Source of the DNA: Candidatus Omnitrophota bacterium
GTDB lineage: Bacteria > Omnitrophota > Gorgyraeia > JAHIPI01
DNA: 64,000 nt
Direction of reading: 5' to 3'
Assembly: GCA_016783745.1 (NCBI GenBank)
Contig: JADHVZ010000003.1
Coordinates: forward strand, 7,112-71,111
Made by a program: the position numbers and the translations under genes. The notes under the pieces were generated by a model. It did not search any database. It saw only the letters and a list, made by a program, of their open reading frames with translations, and was not told the origin of the DNA. This document shows, in pieces, positions 4,571 through 58,230 of the stretch; the first letter of the stretch is position 1, and each line of letters starts with the position of its first letter.

Positions 4571-4766
4571 TCAGTATGAAGCCTCTCATAGCCCGCCCTT
4601 CGCAATAGGTGAACGGGTCAACAGGCTATAGTATACCCCATGCCTATTGAGTATATCCAGTATTTTTTTCGTGATCCCGTATCCGGGGCGTTATGTACGT
4701 ATATCTACATAGGTTCCCCTAATCCTATTCCCATACATCTATTATACCGAAACATCGTCCGTTTGA

Positions 4767-4800
4767 GAAACGTTTCCTGTTTGACTTAGAAAGCGTTTCT
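4767..4800. promoter_or_regulatory. Two palindromic boxes (GAAACGTTTC; AGAAA-gcg-TTTCT) in the divergent promoter; the second lies inside the spacer of TTGACT(4781)-17-TAGTAT(4804)
   Basis: A perfect 10-bp palindrome at 4767-4776. A second palindromic site at 4788-4800 overlaps the predicted promoter of the photoproduct-lyase-like gene. Confidence 0.35.
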
Positions 4801-6653: not shown

Positions 6654-7895
6654 ATGACCGCCAAACTATATAAACGATATCTAACTGTAATTATATCTAT
6701 AGGATTGCTTGCGGGATGCGGCAGGCAGGAGGCGCCCGGTGTTCTTAGCCCGCGTCAGAAGCTTACCATAGCTATTAACCTGACCGAAGAAGAGCGGCTC
6801 TTCTTCGGTCAGCATATATTTCCGGAATTCGAAAAGCAGCACAGAATAAGTGTCAGGGAGCTTCGAATCGATCCGGGGCATCTTGTTGAAAAGCTTGAAG
6901 CCTCCCGGGCCTCTGACAGCTCAGAGATAGATCTTTTTGCTCTTGATAGTATGGAGACGGCAATTATTACTGGCAAGGGCCTTGCCTTAGATCTCTCAGG
7001 ATACGAGGGGCAGATCCCGGAAGAAGTACCTCGCAATATGATCGAATTCTGTAAACTTGACGGGAAGCTCATGTTTATGCCGTTCAGGCCGGACGTACAG
7101 ATAATGTACTACAATTATGACGCATTCAGCAGTTACGGCCTCGCGGCACCACAAAGATGGGGCTATTTGCTTGAATTAGCTCAGAAATTTAAAGAATCTG
7201 AAGGGGAAGGAAGGGTCCTTTTAAAGGCCTCCGGAGGGGATCCTACGGCAATACAGATATATGAATTTATTCTGCAGGCTGACGGCGATCCGTACGCATT
7301 TGATGATATAGGATGTATTCAGACCTTTAGGTTTCTGCAAAAGCTCTGGCAATACACCTCGAAAGAGTCACTTGAGGCGGGGCGGGATGCTACAAACGAC
7401 ATATTCGCGAAACAGGAAGTATATCTTGCCCAAAACTGGTCGTCTAACATCATTGCCCTTAATTCTCGCGAACTCCCGTTCCGCTTTATGACTTTTAGCG
7501 GGTTGGAAGGCCCGGCAGGCGAACACCATGTTATCGGCGGCGAAGTCTTTGGCATACCGGGTGCGTCAAAAAATGCCGGATCAGCGCTGAGATTCATAGA
7601 ATATATTCAGTCAAAAAAAGTACAAGAGGTCCTTGTCTCTGAACTTGGCTGGCCGTCCATGAGAGAGGATGCTTATGAACAGACGGTAGCCGACTCTTAC
7701 ATGAGGGCGCACTACGTCTCGATCAAAAAAGCGTTAAAACGCGGCGTTTTCAGGAAAAGCGTTACATGGTGGCCGGCATATGCAAAATATATCAATGAGG
7801 CTTTCAGGGAGATAGTTGTGGGCGGCGCGCCTGCCGAAGAGACCCTTACCAAGTATAAAGAAAAACTGGAAGATGAAAAATCCGCGTATAGATAA
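6654..7895 (+). CDS. ABC transporter substrate-binding lipoprotein (extracellular solute-binding family 1-like)
   Basis: Lipobox LLAGCG, ~410 aa, overall SBP_bac_1-like composition. No permease or ATPase genes are adjacent. Confidence 0.5.
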   Translation: MTAKLYKRYLTVIISIGLLAGCGRQEAPGVLSPRQKLTIAINLTEEERLFFGQHIFPEFEKQHRISVRELRIDPGHLVEKLEASRASDSSEIDLFALDSMETAIITGKGLALDLSGYEGQIPEEVPRNMIEFCKLDGKLMFMPFRPDVQIMYYNYDAFSSYGLAAPQRWGYLLELAQKFKESEGEGRVLLKASGGDPTAIQIYEFILQADGDPYAFDDIGCIQTFRFLQKLWQYTSKESLEAGRDATNDIFAKQEVYLAQNWSSNIIALNSRELPFRFMTFSGLEGPAGEHHVIGGEVFGIPGASKNAGSALRFIEYIQSKKVQEVLVSELGWPSMREDAYEQTVADSYMRAHYVSIKKALKRGVFRKSVTWWPAYAKYINEAFREIVVGGAPAEETLTKYKEKLEDEKSAYR

Positions 7896-10885: not shown

Positions 10886-12181
10886 GTGAAAAAGAGACCG
10901 ACCTTAGTCATCGCGGATAAAAAGGGAAAAATATACGATATCCCGCCTTTAGAGGCTTGCGGTATGAAAGGCGGGAATTTTTTCCGGCTTAGGAGCCGCG
11001 AACTCATCAAGTTGCCTTACGGCAGTGAGATCTTTATGTTGCCCGGCCGCGCTCCGGTCGGCTACAGCGCCGGGAGCGGAAAGTTTGTGACTCCGAGCGA
11101 CAATTACGCGGTTGCCGCGTTTGTGCCGCCCGGCCGCACCATAACTTACAACAGCGCATACCGTGAGGCCGGCTCGCCAAAAACTCTGCCGCTTTTTGCC
11201 TATGGCGCGGTTGCCTTTTATAAAGGGGATTTTTATGCCGCCGCCGTGCAGGTAGACCGCGAACTTAGGCAGGACCTGCGGCTCATGGATGCCGCTTTAG
11301 TCAGCAAAAATGTCAAACGCTACAGAAAATTATATCCTTCGAACAGGCTTATCAGGCATCTTGAAGGTTGCGCGCTGAAATATGGCTGCCCTGCCGCCAA
11401 AAATTTCTTTTTAGAAAGATATGAGGGCCCGCTGCCTACATCCCCTCACTGCAATGCGTATTGCATAGGCTGCATTTCTCATCAGCCGGCCGGAGGATGC
11501 AGTATCACGCAGCCAAGAATAAAGTTTGTTCCGTCCGCCGAAGAGATAGCGGAGACCGCGCTGCATCATATCGGAAAGGTGAAAGACCCTGTTGTGAGCT
11601 TCGGGCAGGGCTGTGAAGGAGAGCCGCTTTTGGTTGGCAAGATTATAGAAAAAGCCGTCACACTGATAAGGAAAAGCACAGGTAAAGGCATTATAAATAT
11701 AAATACAAACGCAAGCCGGCCTGATACAATTAAACGTTTATTTAAAGCCGGGATGGACAGCATGCGGGTAAGCCTTAATAGCGCGCAAGAGCCGCACTAT
11801 ATCAGATACTACAAGCCCAGAGGCTACAGATATAAAGATGTGATCAGATCTATCAGGGAGGCAAAGAAAGCGCGGGGCTTTGTATCGATCAATTATCTTA
11901 CAATGCCCGGATTTACTGACACAAAAGAGGAATTTGATTCCCTGAGAAAACTGATAAGAAACTGCAAAATAGATATGATCCAGTGGCGTAACTTAAATTT
12001 TGATCCGGCGCGATATTTCAAGGAGCTTAGAATACCTTTCTCTGATTCCAAGTTTCTTGGAATGAGACGGGTTATAAGTGCGATAAAAAAAGAATTTCCT
12101 CATGTCCTGACCGGCTATTTTAATCCTTCCCGGCAACGAATCCGAAGAAAAAGGGGACAGACACTTTTTGAGGCGTTGTAA
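10886..12181 (+). CDS. Radical SAM domain protein with an ~190 aa N-terminal domain of unknown function
   Basis: Cx3Cx2C (CNAYCIGCIS) and a glycine-rich SAM motif (GQGCEGEPLL). Confidence 0.6.
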   Translation: MKKRPTLVIADKKGKIYDIPPLEACGMKGGNFFRLRSRELIKLPYGSEIFMLPGRAPVGYSAGSGKFVTPSDNYAVAAFVPPGRTITYNSAYREAGSPKTLPLFAYGAVAFYKGDFYAAAVQVDRELRQDLRLMDAALVSKNVKRYRKLYPSNRLIRHLEGCALKYGCPAAKNFFLERYEGPLPTSPHCNAYCIGCISHQPAGGCSITQPRIKFVPSAEEIAETALHHIGKVKDPVVSFGQGCEGEPLLVGKIIEKAVTLIRKSTGKGIININTNASRPDTIKRLFKAGMDSMRVSLNSAQEPHYIRYYKPRGYRYKDVIRSIREAKKARGFVSINYLTMPGFTDTKEEFDSLRKLIRNCKIDMIQWRNLNFDPARYFKELRIPFSDSKFLGMRRVISAIKKEFPHVLTGYFNPSRQRIRRKRGQTLFEAL

Positions 12182-12242
12182 AGGGGACAGACACTTTTTT
12201 TGCGGCTACGTAGATAGCTTCAAAAAAAGTGTCTGTCCCCTT
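12180..12242 (+). terminator. Rho-independent terminator: an 18-bp perfect stem (aaaggggacagacacttttt) plus a T-run; the 5' arm is duplicated inside the upstream CDS
   Basis: Perfect inverted repeat at 12183-12200 and 12224-12241 with flanking T/A runs. A second copy of the arm lies at 12148-12169. Confidence 0.6.
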
Positions 12243-29093: not shown

Positions 29094-29197
29094 ATTCGTT
29101 TATCGTATATCGTTGATCGTTTATCGTTTTTGTTGATGAGCATCACAGGATTTGTACGATTGACGATAAACGATAGACGATTAACGATATGCGAACA
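29094..29197. repeat. Heptad-periodic long imperfect hairpin: five TATCGTT-type units, a 20-nt spacer, then five to six ACGATNN (reverse-complement) units
   Basis: Lies in the tRNA-Arg to tRNA-Leu spacer. The units have a 7-nt period on both arms. A further GCGGGC/GCCCGC hairpin sits at 29270-29290. Confidence 0.4.
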
Positions 29198-29566: not shown

Positions 29567-29575
29567 GATATTAGT

Positions 29576-29670
29576 AGGTTTTAGGTGATAGGTAGTAGGT
29601 TATAGGTTTTTAGGAAAGAAATTTAAACCTACAACCTATAACCTACTACCTAACATATGATTTTTTAAAG
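29576..29670 (+). terminator. Hairpin built of TAGGTNN heptads (20-bp perfect stem) followed by a T6 run; terminator after tRNA-Lys
   Basis: taggtagtaggttataggtt (29589-29608) pairs perfectly with aacctataacctactaccta (29634-29653). The T-run is at 29661-29666. Confidence 0.5.
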
Positions 29671-30380: not shown

Positions 30381-30455
30381 TTAGTGCTGAGTCGGGAGTT
30401 GGGAGTCAAGAAACTTCCACACTCAAGACTCAGAACTCAGGACTCATAACTAAAT

Positions 30456-49686: not shown

Positions 49687-50289
49687 ATGGTAAGAGTCAG
49701 GGCACCTTTAATATATATTTTTGTTATATCACTTTCTCTGCTCCTATTGTCTCTCCCGGCATTTGCGCAGCCCTTTGGGGTATACGGCCCTGAGGGTAAC
49801 GTGGAAGACTGGGTGGTAATAGAGTCTTCATATGCGACTATATTTGTGGATAAGGATATCAGGATAAAAGATGTCACGGAAAGGATAGATGTGAGTTTCG
49901 CGAGGTATGATCCCATAGAAAAGCAGCTATTCCTTGACAAGGGTACATCCCCCGAAGAAAAACTGGCGACCAAGATAGATATAATAATAAGGAAGGCTAA
50001 GAAAATACTGGACATGCATCCTCACGATTTTCATGTCAAAATCAGGGTCTATGGGAGTGGGGATGAAATGTGGGATATTTACGAGTATATTTTTAAGGAG
50101 AGAAGGGAATACAAGGCTTTTTATATACATGGATTTGATACTGTATATATACCTGTGGAGTATGTGACTGAATCCATTCTTGCCCACGAACTCGCCCACT
50201 CTATTATAGATACCTACTTTAAAACACTGCCCCCCGAAAAGATCCGAGAGCTCCTTGCCTGCTATGTAGACGTCCATTTAAAAGATTAA
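49687..50289 (+). CDS. Hypothetical secreted protein with a C-terminal HExxH motif
   Basis: Signal peptide. ILAHELAHSIID near the C-terminus. Confidence 0.35.
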   Translation: MVRVRAPLIYIFVISLSLLLLSLPAFAQPFGVYGPEGNVEDWVVIESSYATIFVDKDIRIKDVTERIDVSFARYDPIEKQLFLDKGTSPEEKLATKIDIIIRKAKKILDMHPHDFHVKIRVYGSGDEMWDIYEYIFKERREYKAFYIHGFDTVYIPVEYVTESILAHELAHSIIDTYFKTLPPEKIRELLACYVDVHLKD

Positions 50290-50293
50290 AAGC

Positions 50294-50417
50294 CATAAGG
50301 GGACCATAAGGGGACCATAAGGGGACGTGTCACTTGTGGGACATACCTTTAGGTGTGTCCTCAAGTGACATGTCCCCTTACTATCCTAATGACCTGTCCC
50401 CTTCTCACACGTCCCCT
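50294..50417. repeat. Left direct-repeat element: 3x11-mer (cataaggggac), a 57-bp palindrome (50321-50377), and a GTCCCC micro-repeat tail
   Basis: The 62-bp block 50320-50381 is identical to 51469-51531. The tail at 50387-50417 matches 51570-51600. Confidence 0.6.
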
Positions 50418-50457
50418 AATGAATATGTTAGATATACAAAAGATAGTTTTTGCACTA

Positions 50458-50486
50458 TTGACAAATGCCACTTTGTCATATATACT
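50458..50486 (+). promoter_or_regulatory. Promoter: TTGACA, 17 nt spacer, TATACT
   Basis: Consensus hexamers with ideal spacing. Predicted transcription start ~50493, giving a ~225-nt leader before the PilZ gene. Confidence 0.45.
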
Positions 50487-50535
50487 TTAAATGGAAACAC
50501 AATATTAAGCGATAAGCAAACTGTTTTTTAACATA

Positions 50536-50640
50536 GTTTTTCGTCGAAAAAGGCAAACCATCTGAAAGGGTGGGGCTGCAAAGCCAAGTGCCTAACGCGC
50601 GAATCGCGCTAAGGTCGACTGGCCGCCGAAATGAAAAATT
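50536..50640 (+). ncRNA. Candidate class I c-di-GMP riboswitch (GEMM motif)
   Basis: aggcaaaccatctgaaagggtggggctgcaaagcc...gcctaa closely parallels the Vc2 aptamer core (GGCAAACCAUUCGAAAGAGUGGGACGCAAAGCC...GCCUAA). This includes the GAAA tetraloop hairpin (CCAUCU-GAAA-GGGUGG) and the CAAAGCC receptor region. Confidence 0.55.
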
Positions 50641-50655
50641 TTTTCATTTTTACAG

Positions 50656-50702
50656 CCCCGGATCTCAGATGGCAAAATGCCGTCGCAGATCCGGGGTTTT
50701 TT
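50656..50702 (+). terminator. Intrinsic terminator / expression platform: a 10-bp stem (ccccggatct / agatccgggg) plus T6
   Basis: Perfect GC-rich stem followed by tttttt. The RBS (gaaggag) and ATG of the PilZ gene lie ~15 nt downstream. Confidence 0.6.
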
Positions 50703-50720
50703 ATTTGAAGGAGCACAGCG

Positions 50721-51338
50721 ATGAACGGCAAAAAGAACAACGGTCGGAATAAAAAGATCAAGAAATGCAGAGTTATTGCCCTGCTAAAGAGGGATGAGGT
50801 GGAATTTCTTGATAAGCTGGCCATGGATTCTCTCTTTTCGACTGGCACAAAACTTTCAAGGGTTGAAATAATCAGCGCCCTTGTCAGTGTAGCGATGCTC
50901 TTAGAATTGTCAGCTAGCAATGTTAAGAGTAAAGAAGAGTTAGTTGATAGAGTGATGGATCTACTCAATCCTAATCCTGAGCGAAGACAGATTCCCCGCC
51001 TTAAGAAAAACCTGATGGTAAAATTCAGGAAAATAGAATCCCTACAGGGATATGAAAACGGCGCTACTATAGATGTAGGCATCGGAGGTTTTAAAGTGGA
51101 TGTCGCTTTTATGGGAAAGCCGCTAGCTGTTGATCAACCGATAGAGATCACGGTCAATGAACCACAAGACGAAAGCAAAACAGTAAAGGCGATAGGCCGT
51201 GTAGCCTGGATAAGGGAAAAGGGCGATGGCCATAGCCACGAAATAGGCATCATGCTTACATACATAAAAGCAAATGACAAAGACACCTTCCTTAAATATT
51301 TGACAGGCGATAGGGAAGCCAAAAGCGATGCACAGTAA
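50721..51338 (+). CDS. PilZ-domain protein (c-di-GMP receptor) with an N-terminal RHH-like/unknown domain
   Basis: RRQIPRLKKN (RxxxR) followed by DVGIGGFKV (D-x-S/G-x-x-G) and a beta-barrel-like C-terminus. Confidence 0.6.
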   Translation: MNGKKNNGRNKKIKKCRVIALLKRDEVEFLDKLAMDSLFSTGTKLSRVEIISALVSVAMLLELSASNVKSKEELVDRVMDLLNPNPERRQIPRLKKNLMVKFRKIESLQGYENGATIDVGIGGFKVDVAFMGKPLAVDQPIEITVNEPQDESKTVKAIGRVAWIREKGDGHSHEIGIMLTYIKANDKDTFLKYLTGDREAKSDAQ

Positions 51339-51425
51339 ATAAAGTTTTTTTTGCGGTAAGTTGACAACTGAATAGCCCAAAAGTGGGCACGCAGGCGAGG
51401 ATATAACGTCCTCTACCTCAGGCAT

Positions 51426-51459
51426 CGGCCCGGACTCACCATCCGGGCCGAATTTTTTT
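51426..51459 (+). terminator. Rho-independent terminator (cggcccgga / tccgggccg stem plus T7)
   Basis: 9-bp perfect stem, 7-nt loop, followed by ttttttt. Confidence 0.6.
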
Positions 51460-51468
51460 AAGTCACGC

Positions 51469-51600
51469 AGGGGACGTGTCACTTGTGGGACATACCTTTA
51501 GGTGTGTCCTCAAGTGACATGTCCCCTTACTACACCCCCTTTAAGGAGTGTCCCCTTTTGACACGTCCCCTAATGACACGTCCCCTTCTCACACGTCCCC
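51469..51600. repeat. Right direct-repeat element: the same 57-bp palindrome plus four GTCCCCT micro-repeats (contains a 38-bp insertion relative to the left copy)
   Basis: Identical 62-bp block to 50320-50381. gacacgtcccct-type units recur four times at ~13-bp spacing. Confidence 0.6.
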
Positions 51601-51676
51601 TCAGATCTAATATATTGACATAAATATTGACATAATATATAATATAAACTTAATTCGATAAACGGAGGGCAATAAT

Positions 51677-53089
51677 ATGTCTGATATACTCGAAACAAGG
51701 CACGAAAAACTTGATCTTTTGCGCGAAAAGGGGGTGGACCCATTCGGCGGACGCTTCTCTATCTCAAGCGGAGTCAAAGAGTTAGTGGATGATTTTAAAG
51801 AGGGGGCTAAGGCTGTGGTAGCCGGACGGATAATGGCCAAACGTAAGCACGGCAAGAGCATATTCTGCGACCTGAGAGACGAAAACGCGAAAATACAGCT
51901 CTATTTTAAGGCTGATCCGCTGGGTGCCGACAGCTTTGAGCTTTTCGATTCAGCGCTTGATATCGGTGACATAATAGGCGCGGAAGGAGAGACATTTAAG
52001 ACGAGGACAGGTGAGCCGACTCTTGCAGTGAAGAAATATACTGTTCTTGCAAAAAGCCTCAAGCCTCTTCCGGAAAAATGGCACGGGCTCAAAGACGTTG
52101 AGACGAGGTACAGGCAGAGATACCTGGACCTTATAGCCAACCCGGAGGTCAGGGAAGTATTCAAGATCCGCTGCGATATCATAAAGAATATACGCTCTAT
52201 CCTGGACTCCAAAGGTTATCTTGAAGTCGAGACACCGATGATGCACCCCATTCCGGGCGGCGCGGCAGGGAAGCCGTTTAAGACACATCACGAAGCTTTG
52301 GATATGGATCTATATCTCAGGGTCGCCCCTGAGCTTTATCTGAAAAAGCTTCTTGTGGGCGGTTTTGAAAAGGTTTATGAGATAAACAAGAGTTTTCGTA
52401 ATGAGGGCATTTCCACACGTCACAACCCTGAATTTACCATGCTCGAGGTCTATACCGCTTACGGTGATTGCGGGACTACAATGGAGCTTGTCAGGGAATT
52501 GATCACCGAAGCCGCGAAAAAGGTCATGGGAAAAGAGAAGCTTGAATATCAGGGAAAGACAATAGACCTTACAAAGTGGGAGACGGTATCATTCGCTAAA
52601 ATAATGAAAGAGGCTTATGATATAAATCCGGATGACGATGAGAAGGTATGGATAAGTAAGCTGAAGAAAAGTGGCGCAGAGATAGAAGGTAAGGAAATAG
52701 GAAGGACCGCTATACTCAACCTAATCGCCGACCTTATTGAGCCAAAGTCAAGCCATCCCATATTTGTTGTGGATATATTCAAGGAACTCTGTCCGTTAGC
52801 GAAAGCGAAGAAAGACGAGCCTCTTCTGACCGACAGGTTTGAACTTTTTATGGGCGGAATCGAAGTGGCCAACGCCTATTCGGAGCTCAATGACCCCATC
52901 GAACAGCGCGCGAGATTCGAGGAGCAGGCTGAGGGCGAGATCGACGAAGATTTTATAAGGGCTCTGGAGCACGGTATGCCTCCGGCCGGCGGCCTGGGTA
53001 TCGGCATCGACAGGCTAATAATGCTTTTTACGGATTCACCTTCCATTCGGGACGTGATCCTGTTCCCGCAGTTAAGAAAAGAGACATAA
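51677..53089 (+). CDS. lysS: Lysine--tRNA ligase (class II)
   Basis: N-terminal anticodon-binding OB fold, class II motifs (FRNEGIS...; GGLGIGIDRLIM). A tandem TTGACA promoter region lies at 51615-51650. Confidence 0.85.
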   Translation: MSDILETRHEKLDLLREKGVDPFGGRFSISSGVKELVDDFKEGAKAVVAGRIMAKRKHGKSIFCDLRDENAKIQLYFKADPLGADSFELFDSALDIGDIIGAEGETFKTRTGEPTLAVKKYTVLAKSLKPLPEKWHGLKDVETRYRQRYLDLIANPEVREVFKIRCDIIKNIRSILDSKGYLEVETPMMHPIPGGAAGKPFKTHHEALDMDLYLRVAPELYLKKLLVGGFEKVYEINKSFRNEGISTRHNPEFTMLEVYTAYGDCGTTMELVRELITEAAKKVMGKEKLEYQGKTIDLTKWETVSFAKIMKEAYDINPDDDEKVWISKLKKSGAEIEGKEIGRTAILNLIADLIEPKSSHPIFVVDIFKELCPLAKAKKDEPLLTDRFELFMGGIEVANAYSELNDPIEQRARFEEQAEGEIDEDFIRALEHGMPPAGGLGIGIDRLIMLFTDSPSIRDVILFPQLRKET

Positions 53090-58118: not shown

Positions 58119-58230
58119 AAACGGTTTACGGTGAACGGTTCACGGTTTACGGTTAACAGAACAACCGTAGGATTTTTAAAACCGTTAACCGTACACCGAA
58201 AACCGATAACCGAAATATATATTCAGGAGG
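58119..58230. repeat. Heptad-periodic hairpin: five tandem ACGGTNN units, a short spacer, then six AACCGNN (reverse-complement) units, immediately upstream of clpC
   Basis: acggttt acggtga acggttc acggttt acggtta ... aaccgta(gg) ... aaccgtt aaccgta caccgaa aaccgat aaccgaa. Confidence 0.45.

Follow-up and report, generated by a model that had tools for sequence, protein, structure and literature searches.

The locus considered here lies in a 64 kb stretch of DNA from a Candidatus Omnitrophota bacterium (contig JADHVZ010000003.1, positions 7,112 to 71,111, forward strand; called the window below). In it, a gene for a PilZ-domain protein with its own cyclic di-GMP (c-di-GMP) riboswitch is found between two direct repeats, each of which carries a palindrome. 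The initial annotation suggested that these repeats could delimit a cassette-type mobile unit or a recombination-bounded regulatory island, and the question raised by the locus is whether they are the borders of such a unit or elements with a history of their own. The evidence points strongly to the second answer. The repeats are very probably non-autonomous elements of the REPIN kind, that is, doublets of repetitive extragenic palindromic (REP) sequences, also known in a related form as TIRtrons, and belong to a family linked to REP-associated tyrosine transposases (RAYTs).

Structure of the repeats

Self-comparison of the window gave an exact direct repeat of 64 nt (50320-50383 = 51469-51532), not 62–63 nt as first described, with starts 1149 nt apart. 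The first 24 nt of this sequence have no third match in the 64 kb window with three mismatches allowed, and the two matches observed compare with none in each of 100 window shuffles. The palindrome reported within each repeat is confirmed, with 22-nt arms that are 91% complementary and 19 nt between them, and the segment 50318-50381 folds strongly as single-stranded DNA (-26.0 kcal/mol, z = -9.1). The parts of the two elements are as follows.

50293..50326, plus strand: outer-left head units, (C)CATAAGGGGAC, three tandem 11-mers (Tandem Repeats Finder, TRF: period 11, 3.1 copies, 100% matches)
50320..50383, plus strand: left REPIN-like core, two inverted REP arms, or terminal inverted repeat (TIR) arms, AGGGGACGTGTCACTTGTGGGACA / TGTCCTCAAGTGACATGTCCCCT, forming a hairpin (from the exact repeat, fold and arm matches)
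50385..50417, plus strand: tail of the left element, two head units (GTCCCCT) in minus orientation, at 50396 and 50411
51469..51532, plus strand: right REPIN-like core, of the same sequence as the left one, in the spacer that separates the PilZ terminator from the lysS promoter (from the repeat, arms and fold)
51533..51601, plus strand: tail of the right element, four head units (GTCCCCT) in minus orientation, at 51550, 51565, 51580 and 51595

The three tandem 11-mers that had been noted before the left copy place AGGGGAC at 50298, 50309 and 50320; the third continues into the left hairpin arm, and in the full fold the 11-mers pair with the units of the right-hand tail. Between the tails (50385-50417 and 51569-51601) the identity is 94% across 33 nt, so their description as near-identical stands, while the insertion in the right copy, given earlier as 38 bp, is about 36 nt (51533-51568). 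The tail of the right copy is itself a tandem array (51550-51601: period 15 nt, 3.5 copies by TRF), and because of this the extra 36 nt or so can equally well be read as two 15-nt units added at the end. The count of GTCCCCT units to the right of the hairpin is two at the left copy and four at the right. Altogether, about 100 nt are common to both copies, tail organisation included.

The left copy begins 5 nt past the stop codon of a gene for an HExxH protein, with no other terminator after that gene, and both copies stop 14–41 nt upstream of strong -35 boxes. The region 50201-51700 shows 100% identity in two independent ENA assemblies, and each repeat junction is crossed by short contigs from other samples; for these reasons the repeat-PilZ-repeat arrangement is not an assembly artefact.

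A dispersed family of repeats

A search pattern, GGGACRTGYCACTTN{1,2}GGGACA, was derived from the window arm and the version present in a relative (L007), and GTDB was scanned with it using one genome per species. There were 130 matches in 104 stretches, nearly all from Omnitrophota or mislabelled relatives, and strict matches numbered at least 37 in the metagenome-assembled genome (MAG) JAHJHP01 and at least 31 in CAZYBX01. MAGs labelled 'uncultured Planctomycetia' that have the PilZ-lysS synteny of the window, such as CAZYBX01, are probably Omnitrophota. The copies adjoin many unrelated genes, many sit at contig ends, and they are depleted within coding sequence, 38% falling under stop-to-stop open reading frames (ORFs) of at least 200 aa compared with 80% of random positions. 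Plus/minus pairs were found 23 times, in 19 cases 58–162 nt apart with heads outward, and compact doublets of 58–61 nt, at five loci in four other MAGs, align with the window palindrome over its whole length.

The arm consists of tandem 15-nt units, GGGACGTG(Y)CACTT(N), and in other MAGs two to five such units occur in a row outside the arm. The window arm has one extra base between units (CACTT-GT-GGGACA, compared with CACTT-T-GGGACA), and its exact pattern, GGGGACGTGTCACTTGTGGGACA, gave no matches in JGI metagenomes. Since the same 15-nt head arrays stand beside copies of the REP elsewhere (MAGs L051, L075, L083, L084 and L108, among others), the GTCCCCT tails of the window are a trait of the family and not the signature of a cassette. 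The conserved end of the repeat is (W)AGGGGACGTG, without a GTAG tetranucleotide. A consensus arm of the family (37 nt, L017) folds on its own into an imperfect hairpin (-7.3 kcal/mol, z = -5.2). In Rfam, searched at a permissive threshold, the palindromes gave only sub-threshold matches to generic miRNA hairpin models.

REP copies also occur inside long ORFs without breaking the frame (L074 1709-2462, L015 near 2801 and L029 near 749). In L074, two copies lie in a 1024-aa ORF for a UvrD/AddA-like helicase and are translated as ...GTCHLGT...; intragenic REPs in repair genes are also mentioned by Di Nocera et al. (PMC3733652). Single strict matches were present in MAGs labelled Gammaproteobacteria, Nitrospirota, Dehalococcoidales and Acidimicrobiales (L060, L072, L096 and L115), which could be due to binning contamination or could be real occurrences outside the Omnitrophota.

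The linked transposase

Four repeat pairs are about 700–750 nt apart. Three of them (L050, L058 and L089) enclose a single ORF of 196 aa, and the fourth (L074) is the pair within the helicase ORF. In the former three, the ORF is bracketed by inverted arms with heads outward, forming TIRs of about 30 nt, and the left arm of the window is identical to these flanking repeats at 24 of 25 positions. The same gene was found with one repeat match about 70 nt upstream (L090), and, cut by the end of a record, with a single match 9 nt past the 3' end of the gene (L036).

The 196-aa protein scores 60.7 bits on the Pfam family Y1_Tnp (cutoff 23), and the histidines H60 and H62 (HFH) and the sequence Y120-I-E-R-N-P are invariant in 24 homologues. 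A search of the PDB with the single sequence (phmmer) gave no match; with a profile of the 24 homologues, the top-ranking solved relative was TnpA_REP of E. coli (4ER8, E = 1.1e-5), and the TnpA proteins of IS200/IS605 came after it. Two different RAYT-class paralogues, MDD5680358.1 and MDD5680356.1, each 51–53% identical to the L058 protein, are encoded two genes apart on one Omnitrophota MAG contig of 10,964 nt.

The type of enzyme bears on the possibility that the repeats are ordinary miniature inverted-repeat transposable elements (MITEs), derived from an insertion sequence with a DDE transposase, for example an IS630/Tc1-like element with TA duplication. Such an origin would suit the TIRs of about 30 nt around variable interiors (25–300 nt) and the AT-rich flanks, which often contain TA. 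However, the sole gene found between full inverted arms specifies a Y1/HUH transposase and not a DDE enzyme, the arms fold as hairpins, as HUH enzymes require, and inspection of the flanks of 14 copies gave no consistent target-site duplication. We consider a DDE-derived MITE extremely improbable.

The riboswitch-PilZ unit and its neighbourhood in relatives

The sequence between the repeats had been described as a self-contained unit of promoter, riboswitch, PilZ gene and terminator, and each of these parts was detected. Together with the promoter of the downstream gene, they are listed below.

50458..50486, plus strand: promoter of the PilZ unit, sigma-70-type, TTGACA-17-TATACT (11/12 consensus positions), resident and outside the repeat
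50542..50630, plus strand: c-di-GMP-I riboswitch aptamer (Rfam RF01051, 67.5 bits, gathering score 35)
50643..50709, plus strand: expression platform of terminator type, a GC-rich hairpin and then a T-run, CCCCGGATCT...AGATCCGGGGTTTTTTATTT (inverted repeat)
50721..51338, plus strand: gene for a PilZ-domain protein of 205 aa (Pfam PF07238, E = 2.2e-8)
51425..51461, plus strand: intrinsic terminator of the PilZ unit (51425-51451 plus T-run), a stem of ten pairs, 8 of them GC, and then ATTTTTTT
51615..51643, plus strand: lysS promoter, TTGACA-17-TATAAT (12/12 consensus positions), resident, the right border of the insertion site

Six relatives hold a c-di-GMP-I riboswitch and PilZ unit in this neighbourhood, with flanking proteins or PilZ 57–69% identical to those of the window and riboswitches scoring 66–79 bits. 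PilZ homologues upstream of lysS are 57–65% identical and follow the HExxH gene wherever the contig reaches that far. In L007, L009, L011 and L118 the unit comes after the HExxH gene, the contig of L122 beginning within the spacer, and lysS follows the unit in L007, L009 (with extra genes inserted), L118 and L122; in L011, large genes come after PilZ and lysS is beyond the fetched stretch. The block containing the PilZ promoter is kept in L007, L009, L011, L118, L122 and L125, and the lysS promoter in L007, L118, L120 and L122.

The borders of the unit differ among these genomes while the promoters stay conserved. At the left site, L007 has a 377-bp TIR element bounded by 37-bp inverted repeats, CCCTTTTAGGGACGTGCCACTTTGGGACACTCCACTT, which are clearly the same sequence as the window arm, L011 has a hairpin of a related type (B-type, described below), L122 has a repeat end at the contig break, and in L009 and L118 the site is empty, with no element after the HExxH gene. 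At the right site, nothing is found between the PilZ terminator and the lysS promoter in L007, L118 has a B-like hairpin, and L122 (1095-1215) has an unrelated palindrome made of inverted arrays of AGGTCACC-type tandem units of 8–9 nt.

Empty sites for the PilZ unit itself, which the initial annotation had suggested looking for, were found in three more distant relatives, L120, L123 and L124, where the HExxH gene is followed directly by lysS with neither riboswitch nor PilZ gene (spacers at L120 5600-5769, L123 5570-5684 and L124 5588-6058). Because of these genomes, the unit counts as accessory at the HExxH-lysS junction on an evolutionary scale. The L120 spacer holds an ordinary terminator alone, with no repeat scar, and the 470 nt of the PilZ-less L124 spacer are packed with several copies of hairpins of a third GGGGAC variant, GGGGACTGGTCTA...TAGACCTGTCCCC. 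A homologous unit in a different gene context is present in another organism from the same study (L125 4760-5621), with the conserved promoter block, an aptamer of 74.6 bits and a PilZ protein of 52% identity, and no GGGGAC repeats were found on either side of it. Taken together, the hairpins in L124 without PilZ and the L125 unit without repeats indicate that the presence of the repeats and the presence of PilZ are independent.

These loci bear on the possibility of a cassette or composite mobile element, in which the direct repeats would be the ends of a 1.05–1.3 kb element moving the riboswitch and PilZ gene as a whole. The idea drew on the identical 64-nt repeats around a self-contained expression unit, and it gains from the absence of the unit between the HExxH gene and lysS in L120, L123 and L124 and from its homologue in the other context of L125. 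Against this, the unit is retained in the six relatives, either upstream of lysS or following the HExxH gene, with one or both repeats missing or with unrelated elements in their place, the L125 copy has no such repeats, and GGGGAC hairpins are still present in the PilZ-less spacer of L124. The divergence of PilZ has also kept step with that of the flanking proteins (about 57–69% identity), a sign of long vertical residence. With the orthologous loci of L007, L009 and L118 retaining the unit without these boundaries, those of L011 and L122 having different elements, and the repeat proving to be a common element next to many unrelated genes (the 104 stretches of mostly Omnitrophota MAGs), dispersed and tied to a RAYT, the proposal of a cassette is unsupported; it is largely refuted and we regard it as very unlikely. 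An integron cassette was likewise rejected. Neither RYYYAAC nor GTTRRRY core sites occur in 50285-50430 or 51455-51615, so that both repeats lack attC cores (GTTRRRY), and such cassettes are expected to carry a promoterless ORF, whereas the PilZ unit has a promoter of its own that fits the consensus at 11 of 12 positions.

A second possibility is a recombination-bounded island, in which the direct repeats of about 100 nt would serve as substrates for deleting or amplifying the PilZ unit and so govern the presence or absence of a c-di-GMP effector. The perfect identity over 64 nt of two direct repeats 1149 nt apart is what such recombination would use, and in a neighbour-joining tree of concatenated HExxH, LysS and FtsX-permease (LolC-like) proteins, L120, which has no PilZ unit, grouped with the PilZ-bearing genomes, apart from L123 and L124 (74% bootstrap). 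Yet its position inside the PilZ clade has only 30% support, so that a single ancient gain is equally possible and the tree does not settle gain versus loss of the unit; its spacer has no repeat scar; and no deletion allele was found, as the normal flanks are kept in every one of the seven contigs, from different samples, in which this PilZ protein is encoded (7/7). We consider the island quite unlikely. The riboswitch-PilZ unit is an old resident that the repeats do not define, gained long ago or, in L120, possibly lost.

Some further features of the unit were seen in passing. The PilZ promoter contains a conserved inverted repeat, TGACAAA..TTTGTCA, across the -35 box and spacer, which resembles an operator (window 50458-50486, L007 ~7010-7040, L009 ~6680-6710 and L125 ~4752-4782). 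In several relatives the promoter spacer holds a 10-mer, TGTCACTTTG, that is also found in the REP arm (GTGTCACTTTGGGAC), a post hoc observation that is possibly due to chance. Between the PilZ stop codon and the terminator (51362-51424), the sequence is conserved in three genomes (also L007 7900-7960 and L122 980-1040) and contains two small hairpins; with three sequences only, no covariation was seen, and there was no Rfam match.

Origin of the window copies

We propose that the window copies are REPIN-like doublets. Each consists of two inverted arms that face each other with their GGGGAC heads outward in a hairpin of about 60 nt, the arms being built of 15–16-nt units that start with GGGAC and the outer sides extended by partial head units with a period of 11 or 15 nt. 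The arm family is scattered over Omnitrophota genomes, in which it reaches tens of copies per genome; there, its sequence also brackets the 196-aa HUH/Y1 tyrosine transposase of the RAYT/TIRYT class. By analogy with TnpA_REP of E. coli and the IS200/IS605 enzymes, the RAYT is predicted to recognise the arm once this has folded in single-stranded DNA and to cut and rejoin the strand next to it. Acting in trans, it would in this way copy or shift doublets into non-coding spacers, where, on the same precedent, they would be tolerated. The two window copies occupy the spacers on either side of an old promoter-riboswitch-PilZ-terminator unit. For cleavage and joining of a repeat in single-stranded form, the precedents are TnpA_REP and IS200/IS605 (PMC3479197). 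The two copies may be separate insertions of the commonest sequence of the family, or local copying of one may have produced the other.

Several points weigh against this proposal. The two copies share about 100 nt including the tail organisation, which local copying explains as well as two transpositions do, and transposition and cleavage by the RAYT of the family we infer from precedent. On the side of the enzyme, the 196-aa protein aligns over its full length with the NCBIfam model REP_Tyr_transpos at 77.7 bits, just under the cutoff of 80; tblastn found no RAYT gene in the 64 kb window; and none of eight RAYT homologues checked, among 120 of 1076 matches listed, has an accession near those of the window proteins MBL7070779 and MBL7070780. 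As for the repeats, the shortened single arm of the window (30 nt) folds at only -2.9 kcal/mol (z = -0.6), the window variant with 16-nt spacing was found in no GTDB genome (one per species), and the genome of the window is represented by two copies and one related element, as counted in 64 kb only. The head, GGGGAC(G/A), also differs from the GTAG tag of classical REPs.

The location of both copies close to genes raises the further possibility that the hairpins and GTCCCCT arrays are kept by the host for a local protein-binding or RNA role, as operator arrays upstream of the PilZ and lysS promoters, as stabilisers of 3' ends, or as terminators. Both copies end 14–41 nt before strong -35 boxes, the left copy lies just past the HExxH stop with no other terminator there, and the left site is filled by family members in the window, L007, L011 and L122; REPs elsewhere have been reported (PMC3733652, PMC3479197) to act in termination, mRNA stability and protein binding. 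On the other hand, orthologous sites have elements of differing type and size, or none at all, next to promoters that are conserved, the hairpins are not followed by a T-run, the family is dispersed next to unrelated genes and sometimes within ORFs, and no Rfam family was detected beyond generic hairpin noise. A host function of this kind appears unlikely.

If the repeats are REPIN-like elements, as we favour, the tempting reading of the locus as a novel riboswitch-PilZ gene cassette is removed. In its place stands a documented repeat family of the REPIN/TIRtron type with its RAYT-class transposase in the Omnitrophota, one that is placed next to promoters and the ends of genes and, now and then, within ORFs, that breaks metagenome assemblies at its copies, and that can pass for the borders of a cassette.

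Other hairpins in the window and related scaffolds

One related element, referred to above as B-type, is present elsewhere in the window.

12151..12242, plus strand: B-type element, a solo unit, AAGGGGACAGACACTTTTT, and a hairpin of that unit; its head, GGGGACAG, fits GGGGWSAS

Its arms are 28 nt long and 93% complementary (-30.1 kcal/mol, z = -8.1), and it aligns with the A-type arms, those of the repeats at the PilZ unit, over GGGGAC..CACTT. It overlaps the stop codon of a radical-SAM gene, and a canonical terminator, separate from the element, lies after it. The occurrence of this hairpin beside a radical-SAM gene shows that hairpins with a GGGGAC head are not confined to PilZ.

At least five further intergenic hairpins were seen, at 1483-1566, 29096-29189, 29575-29652, 30389-30451 and 58120-58215, with arms that are inverted arrays of 7–8-nt tandem units, each hairpin having its own unit sequence (CACAAG/GGTGAC-type, TCGTTTA, TAGGTTA, GAGTC-type and AACGGTT (ACGGTTN)). 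Their folding energies range from -15 to -29 kcal/mol; two of the hairpins are located between tRNA genes, another separates the McsB and ClpC genes, and none of the units was dispersed within the 64 kb window. In the RAYT-linked GGGAC family, the number of 15-nt units per arm is also variable, from two to five or more, and there are 11-nt head arrays in addition. It is conceivable, if doubtful, that hairpins in this lineage grow by the addition of short tandem units to both arms, through a general process or protein family for 'tandem-array palindromes' that has yet to be described and of which the RAYT elements would be one instance. Were this so, spacers adjoining promoters could be reshaped time and again by such elements, with the promoters of lysS and of the c-di-GMP-controlled PilZ gene among these.

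Hairpins of this kind are also sites of scaffolding artefacts in ENA scaffolds of the window organism (L126 5722-5821 and 13810-13908; L127 13810-13908). Apparent strain indels of about 155 nt (L126, L127 and L128) were considered as insertion polymorphisms and rejected, as they consist of N runs at other hairpins, with the flanks duplicated.

Comparison with known systems

The arrangement in the window shares with integron attC cassettes an imperfect palindrome of about 60 nt behind a single gene; it is unlike them in having its own promoter, no GTTRRRY cores, a palindrome that is dispersed independently, and a stable gene order in relatives. Correia elements of Neisseria and Nezha elements of cyanobacteria are small, non-autonomous elements with terminal inverted repeats that reside in spacers near promoters and terminators. 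MITEs of this type derive from DDE transposons and make target duplications, whereas the enzyme linked to the present family is of the HUH/Y1 type and target duplications are not regular.

A close likeness is to the REP/REPIN-RAYT systems, such as TnpA_REP with REP/BIME sequences in E. coli and the REPINs of Pseudomonas fluorescens, whose defining arrangement is that of repeats flanking a RAYT gene (PMC3116915, PMC5581495). In common with these, the Omnitrophota repeats are short and typically form inverted doublets that make a longer hairpin, and, in relatives of the window organism, have an arm that folds on its own, are mostly extragenic, reach tens of copies per genome and flank an HUH/Y1 gene in inverted orientation, the best solved relative of which is TnpA_REP. 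They differ in that the arm itself consists of two or more tandem 15-nt units with head arrays of variable number. Unlike the proteobacterial systems, the host phylum is the Omnitrophota and the copy number looks moderate, not in the hundreds. The protein is only distantly related to the Group 2 RAYTs, given the lack of a phmmer match in the PDB and a profile E-value of 1e-5.

A more specific likeness is to TIRtrons, RAYT-like genes flanked by TIRs, several of which share the motif GGGGWSAS; these TIRs form moderately abundant families of dimers and clusters, according to PMC3733652. Measured against the motif given there, the B-type head of the window (GGGGACAG) fits exactly, and the A-type heads (GGGGACGT/GGGGACAT) fit at 6–7 of 8 positions, deviating at the last one or two. 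The likeness is one of TIRs and motif. TIRtrons were described, in the sections of PMC3733652 concerned, from Acidobacteria, Stenotrophomonas and others and not from Omnitrophota, and those sections do not mention a structure of tandem 15-nt units, which is a feature of the Omnitrophota family. A literature search combining Omnitrophica and REP sequences returned no published description of such repeats for the phylum. What is new is the Omnitrophota member; the REPIN/TIRtron-RAYT kind is already known. The family offers a non-proteobacterial case for the question of whether RAYT-REPIN pairs are long-term, vertically inherited partners, and the unusual construction of its arms from countable 15-nt units could help to define what the transposase recognises.

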